Origin: Thermoplasmatota archaeon | GTDB lineage: Archaea > Thermoplasmatota > Penumbrarchaeia > Penumbrarchaeales > Penumbrarchaeaceae | Length of the DNA: 64,000 bases | Assembly: GCA_016928095.1 (NCBI GenBank) | Contig: JAFGLL010000051.1 | Span: 11,779-75,778, forward strand | Direction of reading: 5' to 3' | Part shown: positions 1,368 through 52,264 of the stretch, piece after piece | Layout: every line of letters begins with the position of its first letter | Numbering within the stretch: position 1 is the first letter of the stretch | The notes under the pieces: generated by a model | What the model was told of the DNA's origin: nothing | Databases searched by the model: none | Seen by the model: the letters and a program-made list of their open reading frames with translations, nothing else | Made by a program: the position numbers and the translations under genes

Positions 1368-3350
1368 ATGTTGTATTCCGACCTTTGCTCGTTCTATGGA
1401 AGGATAGAGGAACTCAGCGGAAGGTTGGAAATGACCGACCAGCTCGTTGAACTCTACCGTATAACCCCTCTTGAACTGATAGAGACCGTCGTACGGCTTA
1501 CCAAGGGAGAGATACGACCGGGATATGAGGGTCTGGAGATGGGGGTCGCCGAGAAGCTGGTGCTCAAGGCCTTGTATATGGTGACGATGCTTCCGGTGGA
1601 GGAGATCGAGGAGGAACGGGTCAGAAAAGGTGATATTGGAAGTGCAGCGGAGATATTGGTCGGCAAGAAGAGACAGACATCGCTGTTCCATGAACCTCTC
1701 ACGGTCACAAGGGTGTTCACCAGTCTGACAAGGATAGCCTCCGTAGAGGGGCGCTCCTCCCAGGACCTTAAATTGAAGTTGATCGCAGAGCTGCTCCACG
1801 ATTCGACCCCAATGGAAGCCAAATACCTGACAAGGACCGTATGTCAGAAGATGAGGTTAGGCATCGCCGACATGACCCAGATAGATGCACTCTCATATCA
1901 TAACACCCCGGGGATCGACGAACTCGGCGATTTTTTGGTCCATAACGGTCTTCCCCTCGACGATGGACTCGTTCAAGCTGTAAGAAAGCATCTGGCGACC
2001 GCAATGAGCACACTTGCAGAAACCAGGACCCTTATAAAGGAAAAAGGTATGGAAAAGGATGTTGTACGATCAATGACCGAAAGGGTCCAGAAGATCAGGT
2101 CGGTCGTTCAGGAGAACCGTGAGACCATCGTTAGAGCATACAACATCCATCCGGACCTGGGTTACATAGCATCGCTCCTGGCGAGTGGTGGGATAGGTAA
2201 TATGGGACATATCAATGTGACCCCGGGGATCCCTCTGAGAGCAATGCTCGGGGAGAGGTTACCATCCATCTCAGGGATCATGGAAAAGATGGGGGGCAAG
2301 GTAGCGTTGGAATACAAGTACGACGGTCTGAGGGTGCAGGCCCATATCACAGATATGGGGAAGAACGTTATACTCTTCTCGAGGCAGCTTGAGAACATCA
2401 CGGACCAGTTCCCGGATGTTGCCGGATACCTGGGATCGATGTTCAAAGGGCAGGACTGTATCCTTGAGGGTGAATGTGTTCCGGTGGAATCTGGAACCGG
2501 GAGAATGCTTCCATTCCAGGTCATCTCACAGAGGAGAGGCCGAAAATATGATCTTGAGGACAAGATCGAGGAGGTCCCGGTGATACTGGTCCTTTTTGAC
2601 TGTCTCTATCTGAACGGGAGCGAATACATAGGGAAACCATATCTGGAAAGAAGGGATGCGATCCGTCAAGCGATACCGGACCTTTCCGAGAGAATGGACA
2701 CAGGATCTGGTCTGGCCCTTTCGAGAATGGAAATAATGACAGATGCGGATGAGGGGGAGAATTTCTTCTTGGTGGCTCTTGATGATGGGTGTGAGGGAGT
2801 TATGGCCAAATCTGTAGGGGAGGGTTCGATATATCAGGCGGGGAACAGGGGATGGTTATGGATAAAATACAAAAAGGACTATCATTCAGAACTGATGGAC
2901 ACGATGGACCTTGTGATCATCGGAGCGTATCACGGAAGCGGAAGAAGAGGGGGTACCTTCGGTGCATTCCTGATGGCAGCATATGATAGTGATGATGACG
3001 TATTCAGGACGATCTGCAAACTGGGAAGCGGTTTCAACGATCGGCATCTTGAGGAACTGCCAGCTCTTCTCACGGAGCTTCAGGTCCCGGGGGGCCAAAA
3101 TCCCAAGGTGGATACCAGAATGGAGCCGGATGTATACATAATACCATCCATTGTCCTGGAGGTGAAAGCGGCCGAGATCACTTTCTCCCCGGTCCATACA
3201 TGTGCCTGGGGATATTTGAAGGACAATGCGGGACTTGCTCTCAGGTTCCCGAGGTTCACAGGGAGGATCAGGGATGACAAGGGCCCATATGACGCGACAA
3301 CCGTTCGTGAGGTAATAGGACTTTACGGGCAGCAGATCAAGTCATTATGA
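1368..3350 (+). CDS. lig: ATP-dependent DNA ligase (archaeal LigI type)
   Basis: Adenylation motif EYKYDG; ILEGE, EGVMAK, WIKYKKDY, DLVIIGA and LRFPRF motifs; N-terminal DNA-binding domain. Confidence 0.97.
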   Translation: MLYSDLCSFYGRIEELSGRLEMTDQLVELYRITPLELIETVVRLTKGEIRPGYEGLEMGVAEKLVLKALYMVTMLPVEEIEEERVRKGDIGSAAEILVGKKRQTSLFHEPLTVTRVFTSLTRIASVEGRSSQDLKLKLIAELLHDSTPMEAKYLTRTVCQKMRLGIADMTQIDALSYHNTPGIDELGDFLVHNGLPLDDGLVQAVRKHLATAMSTLAETRTLIKEKGMEKDVVRSMTERVQKIRSVVQENRETIVRAYNIHPDLGYIASLLASGGIGNMGHINVTPGIPLRAMLGERLPSISGIMEKMGGKVALEYKYDGLRVQAHITDMGKNVILFSRQLENITDQFPDVAGYLGSMFKGQDCILEGECVPVESGTGRMLPFQVISQRRGRKYDLEDKIEEVPVILVLFDCLYLNGSEYIGKPYLERRDAIRQAIPDLSERMDTGSGLALSRMEIMTDADEGENFFLVALDDGCEGVMAKSVGEGSIYQAGNRGWLWIKYKKDYHSELMDTMDLVIIGAYHGSGRRGGTFGAFLMAAYDSDDDVFRTICKLGSGFNDRHLEELPALLTELQVPGGQNPKVDTRMEPDVYIIPSIVLEVKAAEITFSPVHTCAWGYLKDNAGLALRFPRFTGRIRDDKGPYDATTVREVIGLYGQQIKSL

Positions 3351-10031: not shown

Positions 10032-10115
10032 GAAGGTCGATCGATCTGATGCCTGATAAATATTGACCTATCACTTTCTCATATCTCCCCCCGGGGCAAC
10101 CCCTTAACTGCCATT

Positions 10116-10128
10116 GTTTCCACTGGAA
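10116..10128 (-). promoter_or_regulatory. ORB (origin recognition box) core TTCCAGTGGAAAC, putative Orc1/Cdc6 binding site upstream of mcm
   Basis: Plus strand gtttccactggaa; the reverse complement matches the canonical euryarchaeal ORB core and continues AATGGCAGTTAAGGGG. Confidence 0.55.
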
Positions 10129-10206
10129 TGAGAGATGTAAAATACAGGTGCGGACCATGGACCCTGAAAAGGGGTCTTTTTTGGGTCCGTTCATAGGTGA
10201 AGGGTA

Positions 10207-14754: not shown

Positions 14755-14972
14755 TCTAATGGTATGGGGGGTCAACTCGGTTGGGTATTTGAGTTGCTGG
14801 CTCCGGTCCAAGATCACCTCCATGTGAGATCTCTTTCATTGATGAACGTAGAAACATATAAATAGTATTGTAATGTTGAAACAAATCCGTTGGATAATAG
14901 CAATATCCGTGGTCTTTGAAAATTACTCGATAATGGTGTATCCATTCATAAGATATTAGGAGGGTGATGAGC

Positions 14973-17174
14973 ATGGCAAAGGTTATCGGAATAGATCTTG
15001 GGACAACTTATTCGGCAATGGCAGTTCTGGAGGGGGGGGAGCCTGTGGTCATACCCACGGCGGAAGGAACCCGGACGATGCCTTCCGTTGTGGCCTTTAC
15101 GGAAGATGGTGAGATACTTGTCGGTCAGGTTGCAAAAAGGCAAGCCGTGACCAATCCCGAGAGGACAATATCCTCGATCAAGAGAAAGATGGGGACAAAA
15201 TACAAGGTAAAGGTCGATGAAAAGGTGTACACTCCCCAGGAGATCTCGGCCATGATCCTGAGGAAGCTTAAAAAAGATGCCGAGGAATACCTGGGAGAGG
15301 AGATCGATAAGGCTGTAATTACAGTTCCCGCTTATTTTGAGGACCCTCAGAGGCAGGCGACAAGGGATGCAGGGAGGATCGCCGGACTGGAGGTCCTGAG
15401 AATAATCAACGAACCCACGGCAGCATCACTGGCATACGGTCTCGACAAGCAGGACATCGAGCAGACAATCCTTGTGTTCGACCTGGGCGGTGGAACGTTC
15501 GATGTGTCTATCCTGGATATTGGCGAGGGTGTATTCGAGGTCAAGGCCACATCAGGTAACAATCTGCTTGGTGGTGATGATTTCGATGCTCGGATCATGG
15601 ACTGGATAATAGAAAAGTTCGATGAAGATTGCGGCATTTCACTTCGTGAGGACAGGAATGCGATGCAGAGATTGAAAGAAGCTGCGGAAAAGGCAAAGAT
15701 CGAACTTTCCTCTAGACTCGACACGAACATCAACCTGCCCTATATCGCAGCCGACAGTGATGGTCCGAAACATATCGATTATACCCTGACAAGGGCAAAA
15801 TATGAATCCCTCACGGAGGATCTAATCGATGCCACAAAAGGTCCGACAAAGAGATCATTAAAGGATTCTGGCCTGACTCCAAAGGAGATCCAGCAGATAC
15901 TCCTGGTAGGTGGGATGACAAGGACACCTGCAGTACAGAATTTTATTAAGGAGTTCTTCGGAAAGGCACCCAATAAGGGTATCAACCCGGACGAATGCGT
16001 TGCGATCGGAGCGGCCATTCAGGGTGGAGTTCTGACCGGTGAGGTCAAGGATGTCCTGCTTCTCGACGTAACACCCTTATCCCTTGGCGTAGAGACTGTT
16101 GGTGGACTTACCTCTAAGCTCATTCCCAGGAATACAACGATACCCTGCAGAAAGAACCAGATCTTCTCGACCGCGCAGGACAACCAGACATCGGTGGAGA
16201 TACATGTTGTACAGGGAGAGAGGGAGATGTCCACTGACAATAAGTCCCTTGGAAAATTCCATCTCATCGGGATACCCCCCGCTCCTAGAGGCGTGCCACA
16301 GATCGAGGTTACCTTCGATATAGATGCGAACGGTATAGTAAACGTTTCAGCGAAGGACCTCGCTACTGGCAAGGAACAGAAGATCACCATACAACCTTCC
16401 TCCGGTGTGACAGAAGATGAGGTTTCCAGGATGATAGAGGACGCTGACAAATATGAGAAGATAGACAAGAAGAAGAAGAAACTTGCAGAACTTCGGAACC
16501 AGGCGGATGCCATGATCTATTCCACGGAGAAAGCGATCGTGGAGCTTGAGGATAAACTGGACAAGAATAAGATGAAAGAGACCAAGATCGCACTGAAAGA
16601 GCTCAAGGTCCAGATGGAGGGTAAGAACGTCAAGGAACTGAAGGAGGCCATAGACATTCTTACAGAAAAGTCCCAGAGCTTGTTCGCCGATGCATACTCC
16701 GGTATCCGTGGGGATGATGAAGAAGGCTATGAACCGATCACGATAAAGTGTCCGAAGTGCAAGAAACCGATAAAGATAACCTCGCCCAAGAGGCCATTGA
16801 AGATCACCTGTCCGCACTGCGGGGCAAAGGGAACTATAAAGGGATCCCCACCCAAGAAGAAACCGGTAGAGGATCGGAAAGATGAGTCGAAAAAAGCTCC
16901 CAGGGAAGAGGAACCCAAGAAGAAGGTCAAGAAATCCTCCTCGGAAGAAAAGGAAGAGACAGAGGAGAAGAAACCTAAAAAGAAGGTGAAGAAACCTTCG
17001 GAGGATGAGGAGGAGGAAGAGGAGCCCAGGAAGAAGGGGAAAAAGGAACCGAAATATGAGCCCGAACTCATTGATTGTCCCAAATGCGGGAATGAGATCG
17101 AGATCGATTCTCCTGAAAGACCCCTAAGGGTTCAGTGCCCTGAATGCGGCGCAAAGTTGAAGATCACGGAGTGA
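14973..17174 (+). CDS. dnaK: Molecular chaperone DnaK (Hsp70) with C-terminal double zinc-ribbon extension
   Basis: GIDLGTT; TVPAYF; INEPTAA; [10 protein letters not shown]; NPDECVA; [11 protein letters not shown]; [15 protein letters not shown]. Confidence 0.98.
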
Positions 17175-24672: not shown

Positions 24673-24745
24673 CGTGACATGAAATGTCTATTATGGATAT
24701 AAGTTAATGGAAAGATTAATCCGCATTCATATCCATCATATGGAC

Positions 24746-25765
24746 ATGGGTGTCAAATTGGGGGACCTTGTGGTCAAGAGGAGGATCGGGGACGGGGAAC
24801 TCTCCGGCAAGGTGATCGGTATGGACGCTTACAACATACTGTATCAGTTCGTATCCTCCATCAGGACACCGGAAGGTTTTCCCCTGACGGATTCAGGGGG
24901 GAATATCGTCTCTCATCTGAAAGGGCTCTTCAGCAGGACGGCGAGTCTCATGTCAGAGGGGGTCAGTCCCATTTATATCTTCGATGGAAGACCTCATGAG
25001 CTTAAAAGAGGGACCCTTGAACTCAGGAGGGCGAGGAAGGAGAAGGCCGTGATGGAATGGGAGAAAGCTCTGGAAGAGGGAGATCTTCAGACAGCAAGGA
25101 CGAAAGCTTCACAGACATCAAGGCTTACAGATGAAATGATCGATGACGCCAAGCATCTCCTGGGGTTAATGGGGGTTCCATGTGTCCAGGCACCGGGGGA
25201 AGGAGAGGCTCAGGCATCTTACATGGCTTCGAAAGGTGATGTATACGGGGCCTCTTCGCAGGATTTCGATTCGATACTCTTCGGATGTCCGTTGCTGATA
25301 AGGAACCTTGCCGTTACCGGAAGGAGAAAACTTCCCGGGAAGAGGGAATGGATAGACGTCCAACCAGAGATCATTGACCTAAAAAGAACGCTTTCGGAAT
25401 TGGGTCTTACCCGGGAGCAATTGATAGATCTGGCGATCCTGGTCGGTACCGATTTCAATGAAGGGGTGAAAGGGATCGGTCCGAAACGGGCACTTTCCAT
25501 GATCAGGGAGTTCGGAACACTTGAGAGGGCAGCGAAGGAAAAGCGCATCCCGTTACTGGAATGGGACAAGGTCAGGGAGATCTTTCTTGACCCATGCGTG
25601 ACAGATGAGTATTCCATAGAATACGGGGAACTCAAAAGGGATATGGTGATGGGTTTCCTTGTGGATAATAGGGAGTTCGGACCATCCGGAGTGGAGCGGA
25701 CCCTGGACCAGATAGGTGCGAGGAAGAAGGAGGTCCCACAGTCATCACTTGATGCTTTCCTCTAG
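24746..25765 (+). CDS. fen: Flap endonuclease 1
   Basis: MGVKLG; DAYNILYQF; SHLKGLF; FDG; APGEGEAQA; SQDFDSILFG; GTDFNEG..GIGPKRA; C-terminal PIP box QSSLDAF. Confidence 0.97.
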   Translation: MGVKLGDLVVKRRIGDGELSGKVIGMDAYNILYQFVSSIRTPEGFPLTDSGGNIVSHLKGLFSRTASLMSEGVSPIYIFDGRPHELKRGTLELRRARKEKAVMEWEKALEEGDLQTARTKASQTSRLTDEMIDDAKHLLGLMGVPCVQAPGEGEAQASYMASKGDVYGASSQDFDSILFGCPLLIRNLAVTGRRKLPGKREWIDVQPEIIDLKRTLSELGLTREQLIDLAILVGTDFNEGVKGIGPKRALSMIREFGTLERAAKEKRIPLLEWDKVREIFLDPCVTDEYSIEYGELKRDMVMGFLVDNREFGPSGVERTLDQIGARKKEVPQSSLDAFL

Positions 25766-48607: not shown

Positions 48608-51600
48608 GTGACATGTGGTGAACGAGGAGTGTTGGACCGCTTGGCAGAATATCTGAACGGGCGTTATACCGATCCGAATGGTTTGGGCCGAAATATCGGG
48701 TTAGATCCCCGGGAAGGGATAGTCGTAGAATCCTCTCTGAGGCCCCTTATTGATGAAAAGAGCGGTTATGTCGTCCTGGGAAGAAGCAGCTCCGCTCACA
48801 AGAAATGGAGAAGGAAGGGATTGCTTCAGATCGGTGCTGTTGGGGAGTTGCAGGAAACCGGTGATAACCTTTTCGGAAGGGAGGTTTACATTGATGCAGC
48901 CTTCCCGCACATCATGTTCATCTGCGGTAAGAGAGGAAGCGGAAAATCCTATACCCTTGGTATCTTTGCAGAAGAGCTCATCAGGTCAGCCATAGGTGTC
49001 GGTGTCATACTCGTCGACCCTATCGGTATCTTCTGGTCCCTGAAGACGGAGAACACTTCCAGGTCCGAGAGAAAAGCACTTGAGAAATGGGGTTTGAACC
49101 CTACCTCGTTCCCTGAGGTAAAGGTCCTTGCGCCCGGAAACGACATCGGCATGCTGCCCGCCAATTGTGATGGACCCTATACCATAGGGGTCAGTGAGAT
49201 GACGGCAGAGGATTGGTGTCAGGTCTTTGACATGGACAGGTTCAAGACCCAGGGACTTCTTGTCGGGACCGCCATAGATCAGGTGAGATCGGGATACAAG
49301 GCCCTGATAGATGAAGCAATGATCGATATTCCATCCAGACCCCAACTTTTCTCTATAGGGGATATCATCCGATGTATGGAATTCTCATCGACGATCATCA
49401 GCAAGACAGGGGGATACAACCCGCAGACCAGGAGATCGGTGATCGCCAGGTTCACCGCTGCCGCGGGCTGGGGAATATTCAGCATCGAAGGCACACCACT
49501 CAGAGAACTCACATCACCGAACAGGGTGACCGTTCTTGATGTCAGCGATACGAACCTGGGAGATTCAAAACGAAGCCTCATCACCGGGATCATCGCCCGA
49601 AAGGTTCTCGAGGGAAGGATCAGATCGGCAAGGAAAGAGGAACATCACGGTTTCGATGAGACGGACCCCGAAATGATCCCACTGACATGGCTCCTGATAG
49701 ATGAAGCACATATCATCCTTCCACACAACAAACAGACACCTGCTTCGGAAGCTCTGATAGAATATGCCAAACAGGGCAGGAGACCGGGATGCGCCATGAT
49801 CCTTGCAACCCAGAGACCCGCCTCAACATCCGATGAGATCCTTTCACAGGTGGACATTCTTCTTGGCCACAACCTCGCCCTGGAGGACGACATGTCGGCC
49901 TTGAGGAGGAGGGTCCCGGCAAAACTCCCCCAGGAGTTCGCTGTTTCGGATTTCATCAGGGGTATACCCGTCGGGACCGCTATCGTCGCTGACCAGAAGA
50001 CACAGCAGAGGTCTTTCCTTGTTAGATTGAGACCACGATTATCCCATCATGCAGGGAGTTCCGCAATGCCAAAAGCATTTCAGGAGAAGAAAGGCAGAAT
50101 GAAGAGACCGATCCCTCTCACGGGAACTTATATTCCCAGGAATATGCCATCCGTCCTTGATCCTACCCCGGTCCCACGTTCTATCGATGACATAGGCGAA
50201 ATCGAAGAGATAGATGAAGATCCTTCTGTATCTGTTTCTCCTGTTTCGGAGGTGATCGCAGATGTCCCGGAAGATCTGGATATCATACCCGAAGGTCCTG
50301 TACCGGACCTTCCTTGGGGTTCGACGATCATTCTCAGGGACAGGTCGAAAGAGGACCTGGAAATGTTTTTGGGGAACGTTGAAGGTGCAACCGGGTTCAT
50401 GCTACTATCTGCCGATGATCCATCAAGGTTAAGTGTTCCATCAGGACCCAAGAGGGTGGACCGCTGGTTCTCGGAAACCGATTCATGTCCGATCCGGGAC
50501 CCAAACGGTCCGGAGATGGCTCTTTCCGCTATAGAGAACACCATCGGAGAAACAAGCTCATGGGTCGTGGTTATCGATCATGTCGAGAACATGTTCAAGG
50601 AACACCCCAAGGAAAAGATCAGGGGTATGTTGAAAGCACTGCATGACAGGGTATTCGAGGGGAAGCATCTTCTGGTGATCAGATGGGATGGTGAAGACCG
50701 GGAAGGAATGCTTCAAGGGATCTTTTCCGTCAAGGATGGGGTCGAAAAAGGACCGGGGCCGAGCATGAGGGACCGAAAGGAAGGCCTCATGCCCACCAAG
50801 ATCGTCCAAAACGGCTCATTGAGGGATGAAGAGCTCAGATGGATGTGCAACGTCATGGGACTTCCAACGGATGGCAACGATACAGAACTGCTGAACAGGT
50901 TGCTGGAATCAGGAAAGGGTATCCTTAACGAAAGCAGCGGGGATAATGTCAATATCGACCTGTTAAAACAGGTGATGCATGAGTCGACAAGGGCCAGAGA
51001 GGAGAACAATAGACTTCTTCAGAGGATCAAGGAGCTCGAATCGGAGATAGGTGTGGATACCCCCGCAGAACCTTTGAGAGAAATGCAAGTTGCTGAAAAA
51101 GGTATCAAGAAGGATAGGAAACTCGTGGTTGTTTGGGAAGATGAGGAGCAGCAACAGGGAAAGGTCGAGCAGTTCATCCAGGAAGTGGAAGACCTGAAGA
51201 GTGAGATAGAAAACGGGCCGATCGAAGGCTCTCCCGCAGAATTCAGTGACACCCTCTTTTCAAAATTGATGAACAAACTCGATGAGGAAAAGCTTGAGAA
51301 CCGAGAACGCCTGAAAAGGCTTGAGGAAATTCTCCAGAACGAGATGGATTCCTTCAGGGATGAGCTCGAATCTCAGAGAAAGAAAATGACAGCATCACGC
51401 AGGATACCAAAGCTCAGGGTCATCAAGGAAAAGCCTCCCCATATGGAACACACTGATGTGAAGAACAGGGTCCTGAAAAGGAAGGTCCTGAAAAGGGGGG
51501 AGGAAGTGGCGGCGGTATCCCCAAGAATAGAGACAAACCAAGCACTGGATATCGGGAAAAGGAACCTGAAAAGAAGTATCTTCAGGGGGCCAAAGGAATC

Positions 51601-52264
51601 CATTGATGATATCATACCCTATAACATATTGCTTTATCGATTTCTTGTAGGTTACAGAGGAGGATTGAGAAGGTCCGACAGGGAATCCGATGTGTTCATT
51701 GATTCCATTACGGGAGAGATCGTGGAACAGGGTAGGACCGGGCTCAGGAGGAGCGAGGGCCTGCCATGCCTCCTCAGGATGACCGATCTGGAGATGGACG
51801 TTTTCGCAGTATTGACCACATCACCGAAAGAGCCGTCATGGATATCCAAAGCTTCCGGCATAGACGTTGCTCGGGTTAAAAGGTCTCTGTCATCTCTCGA
51901 GAAAAAAGGACTTGTAAGGAGGGTCCGAATAGAAGGTAACCTTGACCTTTTTTCGATAGGGGACAATATCAAGATCCCTTCAAGACCTTGGGTGAGGGAC
52001 CATGGATTTGAACCAGCTTTCGTGATATGTAAAGGTGAGAGGATACTGACCCCGAGGATAACGGTTAATGATGCACGGACCGTGATCGAGAGATTATCTC
52101 GCCAGATAGATATCATAGAACAGGATACCGTTAGATATCCGATCCATGTGATAAAGATCAGGGGTGAGGGTCGAACTAGATATATCGCCGTAGATGGATT
52201 CGGGGGCAGGTTGGACAGAAGGATCTCCAATATCCTCAAAAACATCATCGAGGGCGGCAATTAG
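48608..52264 (+). CDS. HerA/FtsK-superfamily ATPase (DUF87/COG0433-like) fused to DUF835-like, SAP-like, coiled-coil and wHTH modules
   Basis: GKRGSGKSYT (Walker A); LVDPIG; LLIDEAH (Walker B); ILATQRP; VVIDHVENMF; EELRWMCNVMGLPTDGNDTELLNRLL; KRSLSSLEKKGLV. Confidence 0.85.
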   Translation: MTCGERGVLDRLAEYLNGRYTDPNGLGRNIGLDPREGIVVESSLRPLIDEKSGYVVLGRSSSAHKKWRRKGLLQIGAVGELQETGDNLFGREVYIDAAFPHIMFICGKRGSGKSYTLGIFAEELIRSAIGVGVILVDPIGIFWSLKTENTSRSERKALEKWGLNPTSFPEVKVLAPGNDIGMLPANCDGPYTIGVSEMTAEDWCQVFDMDRFKTQGLLVGTAIDQVRSGYKALIDEAMIDIPSRPQLFSIGDIIRCMEFSSTIISKTGGYNPQTRRSVIARFTAAAGWGIFSIEGTPLRELTSPNRVTVLDVSDTNLGDSKRSLITGIIARKVLEGRIRSARKEEHHGFDETDPEMIPLTWLLIDEAHIILPHNKQTPASEALIEYAKQGRRPGCAMILATQRPASTSDEILSQVDILLGHNLALEDDMSALRRRVPAKLPQEFAVSDFIRGIPVGTAIVADQKTQQRSFLVRLRPRLSHHAGSSAMPKAFQEKKGRMKRPIPLTGTYIPRNMPSVLDPTPVPRSIDDIGEIEEIDEDPSVSVSPVSEVIADVPEDLDIIPEGPVPDLPWGSTIILRDRSKEDLEMFLGNVEGATGFMLLSADDPSRLSVPSGPKRVDRWFSETDSCPIRDPNGPEMALSAIENTIGETSSWVVVIDHVENMFKEHPKEKIRGMLKALHDRVFEGKHLLVIRWDGEDREGMLQGIFSVKDGVEKGPGPSMRDRKEGLMPTKIVQNGSLRDEELRWMCNVMGLPTDGNDTELLNRLLESGKGILNESSGDNVNIDLLKQVMHESTRAREENNRLLQRIKELESEIGVDTPAEPLREMQVAEKGIKKDRKLVVVWEDEEQQQGKVEQFIQEVEDLKSEIENGPIEGSPAEFSDTLFSKLMNKLDEEKLENRERLKRLEEILQNEMDSFRDELESQRKKMTASRRIPKLRVIKEKPPHMEHTDVKNRVLKRKVLKRGEEVAAVSPRIETNQALDIGKRNLKRSIFRGPKESIDDIIPYNILLYRFLVGYRGGLRRSDRESDVFIDSITGEIVEQGRTGLRRSEGLPCLLRMTDLEMDVFAVLTTSPKEPSWISKASGIDVARVKRSLSSLEKKGLVRRVRIEGNLDLFSIGDNIKIPSRPWVRDHGFEPAFVICKGERILTPRITVNDARTVIERLSRQIDIIEQDTVRYPIHVIKIRGEGRTRYIAVDGFGGRLDRRISNILKNIIEGGN

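Follow-up and report, generated by a model that had tools for sequence, protein, structure and literature searches.

The 64,000-nucleotide stretch of contig JAFGLL010000051.1 from a Thermoplasmatota archaeon analyzed here (64 kb; the window) carries a solitary origin recognition box (ORB), the recognition element of the initiator Orc1/Cdc6, in the spacer between mcm, which encodes the replicative helicase, and a divergently oriented gene for a protein with a zinc ribbon (the Zn-ribbon protein). Why place an initiator box in front of the gene for the helicase? We favor, with moderate confidence, the reading that this solitary and composite Orc1/Cdc6 box is a putative transcriptional operator within a bidirectional mcm/Zn-ribbon promoter. 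To our knowledge, archaeal Orc1/Cdc6 has been treated almost only as an origin binder, and in our literature searches neither an ORB in front of mcm, nor an archaeal mcm promoter, nor archaeal control of mcm by Orc1 turned up.

The perfect 13-mer TTCCAGTGGAAAC, which the initial annotation had placed on the minus strand at 10116-10128 and identified as the conserved ORB core, was recovered exactly there, with 78 nt between it and the mcm ATG, and the identification agrees with the published consensus, CTTCCAGTGGAAACGAAAGGGGT for archaea and GTTCCAGTGGAAATGG-AGGGGTA for Methanomassiliicoccales (PMC4153887). By arithmetic, about 0.002 exact occurrences are expected on both strands of 64 kb. Copies with at most two mismatches are at chance level in the window (3 found, 2.0 expected), so only the exact copy counts; when at most three mismatches and a following GGGG are specified, the mcm box is the sole match in the 64 kb. 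Against the dyad core TTCCAGTGGAAA(C/T), the window matches at 13/13 positions and its relatives show 0-3 mismatches, mostly at the central bases. On the minus strand the 13-mer is followed by AATGGCAGTTAAGGGG(T), also given as AATGGCAGTTAAGGGGT, which reaches 10099. A GGGG string is present, but not at the spacing of the published consensus ORBs: GGGGT begins 12 nt past the perfect dyad instead of 3-4 nt.

Comparison with relatives offers an account of this spacing. The canonical G-string distance occurs in the relative L009 and in all 11 Poseidoniales sites described below, and in the window GGGGT stands at that distance only relative to a second, degenerate unit (14/21) that overlaps the first. 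Judged by these alignments, the element consists of a pair of ORB-like units that overlap with an offset of 9-10 nt, which explains the 12-nt gap. In L009 the distal register holds a near-perfect canonical ORB, AACCAGTGGAAATAAAGGGGT (20/22 including the G-string), and the proximal unit is the degenerate one. An nhmmer profile of the block aligns its distal part to canonical cdc6-linked ORBs, the ACCCC of the distal unit is invariant in the lineage alignment, and the central-base variants of the dyad found in the lineage (TTCCATAGGAAAC, TTCCACAGGAAAC and TTCCAATGGAAA) recur at ORBs linked to cdc6 in other Thermoplasmatota. Additional GGGGG runs behind ORBs, comparable to the C-run beside the box, have been noted for Methanomassiliicoccales (PMC4153887) and also occur in Poseidoniales. 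The CACTTTC..CCCC element on the far side was considered as a second ORB and rejected, its polarity matching neither ORB orientation.

The block is conserved. Fifteen lineage members have upstream sequence (the window, L363/L374, L203, L001-L006, L008, L009, L371, L373, L375 and L367), with MCM proteins 60-83% identical to that of the window, and the block lies at the same place in 15/15 of them. They share one order of elements: CACTTTC, a C-run, ACCCC, a TTCCA-like half site, the TTCC-NNN-GGAA dyad, (G/A)GATG, (T/A)AAAATA, a variable inverted repeat, a Shine-Dalgarno sequence and the ATG. The end of the dyad stands 10 bp short of an invariant TAAAATA, a putative promoter element, in all members. 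In the comparison with the closest relative (MCM 83% identical), the 4-fold degenerate sites of mcm are saturated, at 32% identity, while the ORB block at 10098-10128 is identical at 29/31 positions (94%), a difference that shows strong purifying selection on the block. The stretch with the putative transcription factor B recognition element (BRE) and TATA box is identical at 14/17 positions in the same pair, and the remaining spacer at 47-62%. A degenerate pattern of the composite box, searched against the GTDB representative genomes in full (596 Gb), gave 13 matches, 12 of which are the mcm/Zn-ribbon spacer, once per genome; the 13th is repetitive bacterial coding sequence, in line with the roughly one match expected by chance. 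Assemblies with the box include GCA_049472215.1/JBLIRH01, JBLIRF01, JBLIRI01, JBLIRL01, JAWOCK01, CAWEDU01 and JALOTP01. Far from being unconserved or at chance frequency, either of which would have counted against the initial annotation, the box thus recurs at this one spacer.

A second order of archaea points the same way. Loci for comparison were retrieved by MCM similarity alone, not by motif, and among them, in 11/11 mcm loci of Poseidoniales (Marine Group II), a full ORB of canonical type precedes the start by 71-93 nt (for example TTCCAGTGGAAATATAGGGGT), with the G-string towards mcm, against only 2/132 other archaeal mcm loci, a background of 1.5%. The motif scan added at least five more Poseidoniales cases, and a Thermoplasmata locus, L010 (48% identical), has one ORB-like site at about -60. 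Because Poseidoniales, Methanoperedens and L010 all have ORBs or ORB-like sites before mcm, the ORB-mcm link is lineage-specific yet recurrent.

Other arrangements accompany these cases. Five Methanoperedens loci (L022, L025, L042, L048 and L208) have two direct ORB-like sites before mcm, TTTCCAGTGGAA..GGGGT at about -278 and TTTTTCCAAAAGAAATAAAGGGGTTG at about -80, with about 190 nt of AT-rich DNA between them, an arrangement that could be an mcm-linked origin or another regulatory set-up. Further solitary canonical ORBs stand, among the Poseidoniales matches listed, by a gene for a ~438-aa metallo-beta-lactamase/beta-CASP-like protein (L089 ~4375, L093 ~4851 and L146 ~4081) and at the 5' end of a gene for an 850-885-aa protein with an N-terminal helix-turn-helix (HTH) domain (L095 ~3524 and L145 ~3383); among the matches listed, no Poseidoniales ORB adjoins cdc6. 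ORB-like matches before mcm in five lake or sediment loci (L256, L269, L273, L280 and L282) were discarded, as they lie within coding sequence for TBP (GKLVCTGTK). In these loci the TBP gene is directly upstream of mcm, and the repeated GKLVCTGTK coding mimics the dyad (GTTCCAGTGCAAAC), a trap for motif-based origin prediction.

The spacer between mcm and the divergent gene measures 175 bp. With 84 nt between it and the divergent ATG, the box is as close to this gene as to mcm, and its G-string side points to the divergent gene, a feature overlooked in the initial annotation. Putative promoter elements lie on both sides (Table 1). On the mcm side, AAAATA is invariant in 10/10 aligned sequences, kept in 5 further members and 8.7-fold enriched upstream of window genes, and AATAAAATA occurs likewise about 50 nt upstream of dnaJ; hexamers of the TTAAT and AAATA types are enriched upstream of window genes. 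On the other side, ACTTTC (10073-10078) is nearly invariant in the lineage alignment, is also present in L363, L371, L373, L375 and L367, and occurs in two copies in L010. Orc1-2 of Sulfolobales is reported to recognize a short ANTTTC-type motif and not the ORB dyad; the CACTTTC box fits this motif, a 6-mer coincidence and as such weak evidence.

Both pairs of flanking repeats described in the initial annotation are in the window. GGACCC (10159-10164) and GGGTCC (10183-10188) are perfect inverted repeats, and in relatives this place is likewise taken by an inverted repeat, though its arms differ in sequence (GGACC/GGTCC, ACCGG/CCGGT or TCGGAC/GTCCGA), the inner CCTGAAAAGGGG being kept in the closest; of the CCCC/GGGG palindrome only the C-run is conserved. 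The leader repeat folds at -23.4 kcal/mol (z = -2.8) in the window, single-sequence z-scores are mostly weak, and the formal covariation test of the leader RNA failed, RNAalifold giving no consensus. The repeat spans the predicted transcription start site (TSS) and is followed by T6 in the window; if TAAAATA is the TATA box, the repeat would not be wholly transcribed. Taken together, the spacer would be fully accounted for by promoter-like elements of two divergent genes. Three metatranscriptomes of the same study contain essentially no transcripts of this organism.

Table 1. Elements of the mcm/Zn-ribbon spacer and the two genes that border it (positions in the window).
Feature	Position	Strand	Basis and remarks
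Divergent Zn-ribbon gene; product of 144 aa, DUF5817/DUF1922-like, its C-terminus resembling the MCM winged helix	9597..10031	-	Synteny, Pfam and hhalign
TATA-like ATATTTATC of the Zn-ribbon gene (putative promoter element)	10055..10063	-	About 25-30 nt from its ATG; every relative has an AT-rich box here
CACTTTC box (GAAAGTG on the minus strand)	10072..10078	+	Adjoins the TATA-like element of the Zn-ribbon gene on its upstream side; separated by 20 bp from the G-strings of the ORB
C-run, a second minus-strand G-string; palindrome CCCCCCGGGG in the window	10087..10096	.	C-rich run kept in relatives, palindrome not
Distal unit: degenerate full ORB with G-string, AAACAATGGCAGTTAAGGGGT	10099..10119	-	14/21 positions of TTCCAGTGGAAATAAAGGGGT; overlaps the proximal unit
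Proximal (mcm-side) unit: perfect palindromic mini-ORB TTCCAGTGGAAAC	10116..10128	-	Exact match; dyad TTCC-NNN-GGAA in 14/15 lineage members, only central bases vary
(G/A)GATG stretch, possible BRE	10130..10137	+	Between the ORB and the TATA-like element; conserved columns; BRE suggested by position only
TAAAATA, putative mcm TATA box	10138..10144	+	63-69 nt before the mcm ATG; starts 10 bp past the ORB dyad
Nested inverted repeat GGACC..GGACCC-TGAAAA-GGGGTC..GGGTCC	10153..10188	+	Between the TATA-like element and the Shine-Dalgarno sequence
Shine-Dalgarno-like GGTGA	10196..10200	+	GGTG/GGAG 6-10 nt before the ATG in all relatives and before many window genes
mcm, replicative helicase, 707 aa	10207..12330	+	Pfam MCM 4e-91, MCM_OB, MCM_lid

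The divergent gene is itself of interest. It is syntenic with mcm in 15/15 lineage members, and its product combines an N-terminal CPxC..CxxC zinc ribbon with a C-terminal segment of about 46 residues that resembles the C-terminal winged helix of MCM. Among nine members, Pfam recognizes DUF5817 in 5/9 (2.5e-6), DUF1922 in 4/9 and MCM_WH_arc in 3/9 (9.6e-5), and hhalign of the Zn-ribbon protein against the C-terminus of the window MCM gives a probability of 87% and E = 4e-6, with the common motif ..L..L...G.IFEPR.G.F..V. An AlphaFold model built from a two-sequence alignment is mediocre (predicted local distance difference test score, pLDDT, 66), and its fold matches, to MTH1184 (DUF1922) and the Rpa2 winged helix, are not significant. 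The public gene call is 110 aa long and starts downstream of the conserved zinc ribbon. Because the MCM winged helix is reported to contact ORB-bound Orc1-1 in Sulfolobus (PMC12141716), we speculate that the Zn-ribbon/winged-helix protein could be a decoy or adaptor for Orc1.

How might the operator work? One Orc1/Cdc6 paralogue would grip the dyad by its winged helix and the G-string side by its AAA+ domain, with the box taking up the space of roughly 80 bp that separates the two divergent core promoters. Towards mcm, about 2 bp would lie between the end of the dyad and the BRE-like stretch, and 10 bp between it and the TATA-like box; at the opposite end, the G-strings would face the divergent promoter. 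Occupancy could then help or hinder recruitment of TFB/TBP at one or both promoters, so that the supply of the helicase and of the MCM-like winged-helix protein would be coupled to the amount or the nucleotide state of the initiator, as with DnaA boxes in bacterial promoters. Gene regulation by the Orc1/Cdc6 family has a precedent in Orc1-2 of Sulfolobales (PMC6061795), and a regulatory role has been suggested in general terms in a review (PMC5333045). Control of mcm transcription by Orc1/Cdc6, one of the two readings put forward in the initial annotation, fits the selection on the box, its fixed place before an invariant TATA-like element in 15/15 members and the Poseidoniales parallel; we infer from sequence that Orc1 binds, where the promoter elements and the TSS lie, and whether the box would activate or repress.

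Several points weigh against such an operator. The polarity of the box differs between groups: here the G-string points away from mcm, but it faces mcm in Poseidoniales, L010 and Methanoperedens, which is awkward for one common mechanism at mcm. Relative to the divergent gene, the dyad lies at -85 to -97 with the G-string proximal, which is the Poseidoniales geometry at mcm; from this match, both genes, or mainly the divergent gene, may be the regulatory target. A second AT-rich stretch, CCTTAACTG, lies inside the ORB spacer and could be the real TATA box, which would put the dyad between TATA and TSS and predict repression. In Pyrococcus, a lone mini-ORB was unoccupied in vivo and a single full ORB was bound well in vitro (PMC1904270), and the affinity of the box here is uncertain because 12 nt, in place of 3-4 nt, separate its G-string from the perfect dyad. 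Nor did a protein search and a genome scan with the Cdc6 of L133 find the lineage's own cdc6 locus or origin; both gave a different, MBG-D-like group only.

The ORB likeness might also be incidental or convergent, the block being bound by another winged-helix protein or some other factor, with the neighboring 896-aa CARDB/HTH protein, the Zn-ribbon/winged-helix protein and a lineage-specific regulator as candidates. HTH genes do adjoin the block, G-string spacing is non-canonical in most lineage members, and other conserved boxes stand alongside (CACTTTC, the C-run and the leader inverted repeat). We nevertheless consider this unlikely, as the window dyad agrees with the ORB core at 13/13 positions, L009 has 20/22 of a canonical ORB, G-string included, at the same site, the central-base variants of the lineage also occur at cdc6-linked ORBs of other Thermoplasmatota, and Poseidoniales independently place a canonical ORB before mcm.

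To compare the site with archaeal origins, we drew on a GTDB scan (one genome per species) for the full ORB CCAGTGGAAAYNAAGGGGT, which gave at least 120 stretches (L083-L202). Among the matches listed, 77/80 are archaeal and 52/120 have cdc6 in the same 8-kb block, 41 of those at most 700 nt from the cdc6 start, so the motif family marks Orc1/Cdc6 sites. From another group of Thermoplasmatota, 80 cdc6 loci were retrieved, 50 of them with complete upstream sequence, and ORBs are present in 42/50. A canonical inverted ORB pair is found in 24/50, with a distal minus-strand box at -357 to -443 and a proximal plus-strand box at -198 to -270, so that the dyads are opposed over a distance of about 150 nt, with outward-pointing G-strings. 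The 37 cdc6-linked ORB loci have a median of 2 ORBs within +/-750 nt and a median 60-nt GC minimum of 0.20, 27 points below the locus mean; the 13 mcm-linked ORB sites have medians of 1 ORB and 0.30.

Might the box nonetheless be a minimal or secondary origin, or a helicase-loading site tied to mcm, at which Orc1 on a single ORB would recruit MCM to adjacent DNA? ORBs are the defining element of archaeal origins, and the lineage's origin was not found elsewhere. The initial annotation was right that the window contains no cdc6: a Walker-A scan, Pfam on 27 large open reading frames and tblastn with Thermoplasmatota Cdc6 found none across the 64 kb (-10/+54 kb from the box), and cdc6 is equally absent from 20 kb of L363 and from each of more than 160 mcm-anchored loci. 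With cdc6 missing from all of these loci, the box is no outlying part of an origin linked to cdc6. Next to the box, GC skew at third codon positions (GC3 skew) is slightly negative in the nearest two genes on the left and positive in those on the right, and Methanoperedens, with its two direct ORB-like sites around AT-rich DNA, could be taken as a kindred case. Overall, however, plus-strand GC3 skew per gene shows no clear switch, with about +0.02 over 5 genes on the left, where genes are too few, and about +0.06 over 37 on the right; coarse GC skew follows gene strand, and assembler depth is flat at ~12x (Logan contigs). Scans for ORBs and for 60-nt GC minima bore out the single ORB and the lack of a clear unwinding element reported in the initial annotation. 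There is one cluster on one strand, lacking an inverted partner both within 1 kb and in mcm itself, and no AT-rich element within +/-750 nt, where the lowest 60-nt GC is 0.33 (window mean 0.49), about 580 nt from the box, against the median of 0.20 at cdc6-linked sites. In Poseidoniales, too, the ORB before mcm is single and has no AT-rich stretch beside it. The best-studied origin, S. islandicus oriC1, loses its activity if either of its two inverted ORBs is missing (PMC12141716), and the 175-bp spacer would already be occupied by two promoters. We prefer an operator to a minimal origin because of the single ORB cluster, the missing AT-rich element, the lack of a clear skew switch and a spacer filled by promoter-like elements; the mcm-linked origin that the initial annotation had offered as its second reading, unlike the two-ORB cdc6-linked origins of the phylum, is distinctly unlikely.

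A combined scheme, in which ORB-bound Orc1-ATP would recruit MCM through its C-terminal winged helix at the helicase's own promoter, seems to us quite improbable; the site would then be a minimal cdc6-unlinked origin or an autoregulatory sensor by which surplus MCM shuts off its own promoter, and the divergent protein would be a decoy or adaptor for the same Orc1 surface. Binding of Orc1/Cdc6 for other ends, such as initiator titration (a datA-like sink), chromosome organization or a fossil origin kept by promoter overlap, has some footing in solitary ORBs recorded off origins with no role attached (in Methanomassiliicoccales, at Pyrococcus dp1, and in Poseidoniales beside the beta-CASP-like and HTH genes), but it is improbable, as neither a sink nor a fossil accounts for the constant spacing between the box and the TATA-like element, or for a specific link to mcm that recurs in two orders over a 1.5% background.

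The surroundings of mcm hold further replication genes, an ATP-dependent DNA ligase (1368-3350) and FEN1 (24707-25765), and a scan for an ORB with a G-run found none upstream of either. Ligase, mcm and FEN1 lie within 25 kb (1368-25765) with a grpE-dnaK-dnaJ cluster between them, and the gene order from ligase to dnaJ is fully syntenic in the closest relative, L363. The DnaK homologue (14964-17174, plus strand, 736 aa) has extra C-terminal zinc-ribbon-like segments that are unusual for Hsp70 (Zn_ribbon_LysW at 704-734 and a second at ~590-622). At 48608-52264 (plus strand) lies a gene for a 1218-aa protein with a HerA/DUF87-type ATPase domain near its N-terminus and a TrmB-type winged helix near residue 1060. 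The organism's genome is also present in a sediment metagenome run. One of the 12 composite-box matches, in the Atribacteria bin L367, encodes a Zn-ribbon homologue with the ORB box. More broadly, contigs L367, L191, L316 and L362, binned as Atribacteria, Verrucomicrobiales, Gammaproteobacteria and 'bacterium', carry archaeal genes (the Zn-ribbon homologue next to its ORB box, mcm of the Poseidoniales type together with an ORB, and cdc6 of Thermoplasmatota), and are probably mis-binned in public metagenome-assembled genomes.

What we describe is a known initiator box in a new, conserved and gene-specific promoter context. If the operator reading is true, it would point to a direct regulatory wire from the initiator to the helicase gene, and it would make directly testable a long-standing question, how the supply of replication proteins is coordinated in archaea that lack control of the cyclin/CDK type. 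Poseidoniales are among the most abundant archaeal groups in the surface ocean. For ORB-based origin prediction, solitary ORBs at mcm would be false positives, and the Zn-ribbon protein with its MCM-like winged helix is a new candidate replication-associated factor.

The site shares with the cdc6-linked origin ORBs of Sulfolobus oriC1, Pyrococcus oriC and Methanomassiliicoccales the dyad core TTCCAGTGGAAAC and a one-sided G-string. It differs from them in being solitary, with no inverted partner, AT-rich element or cdc6 alongside, in consisting of overlapping units offset by 9-10 nt, which in most members puts 12 nt instead of 3-4 nt between the perfect dyad and the G-string, and in lying within a 175-bp bidirectional promoter region. 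In bacteria, DnaA acts as a transcription factor at dnaA, nrd and other promoters via DnaA boxes, according to Messer and Weigel (1997) in the account given by PMC1904270; there too an origin-type site of the initiator is reused beside the core promoter of a replication gene. The bacterial boxes differ in domain of life, in the fold context of the protein family and in promoter machinery (TBP/TFB here). The Pyrococcus ChIP-chip (chromatin immunoprecipitation on microarrays) study contrasted Cdc6 with DnaA in this regard, having seen no promoter binding (PMC1904270). Orc1-2 of Sulfolobales is likewise a regulator of the Orc1/Cdc6 family that acts at promoters, in the DNA-damage response (PMC6061795, PMC9738581), but it is crenarchaeal. 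The origin in the human MCM4/PRKDC bidirectional promoter (PMC2018721) resembles the present case as an initiator-binding region in the bidirectional promoter of an MCM gene; it is eukaryotic and has no sequence-specific ORC site, and serves as an analogy only. Closest in kind are the canonical ORBs that lie away from the cdc6-linked cluster and were reported without interpretation, ORB3 and ORB4 of Ca. Methanomassiliicoccus intestinalis (PMC4153887) and the ORBs and mini-ORBs at dp1 of Thermococcales (PMC2643942). Those are single-genome cases with no conservation or gene-specific placement shown, whereas the site described here is fixed before mcm in 15 species, and its counterpart in Poseidoniales at 11/11 loci.

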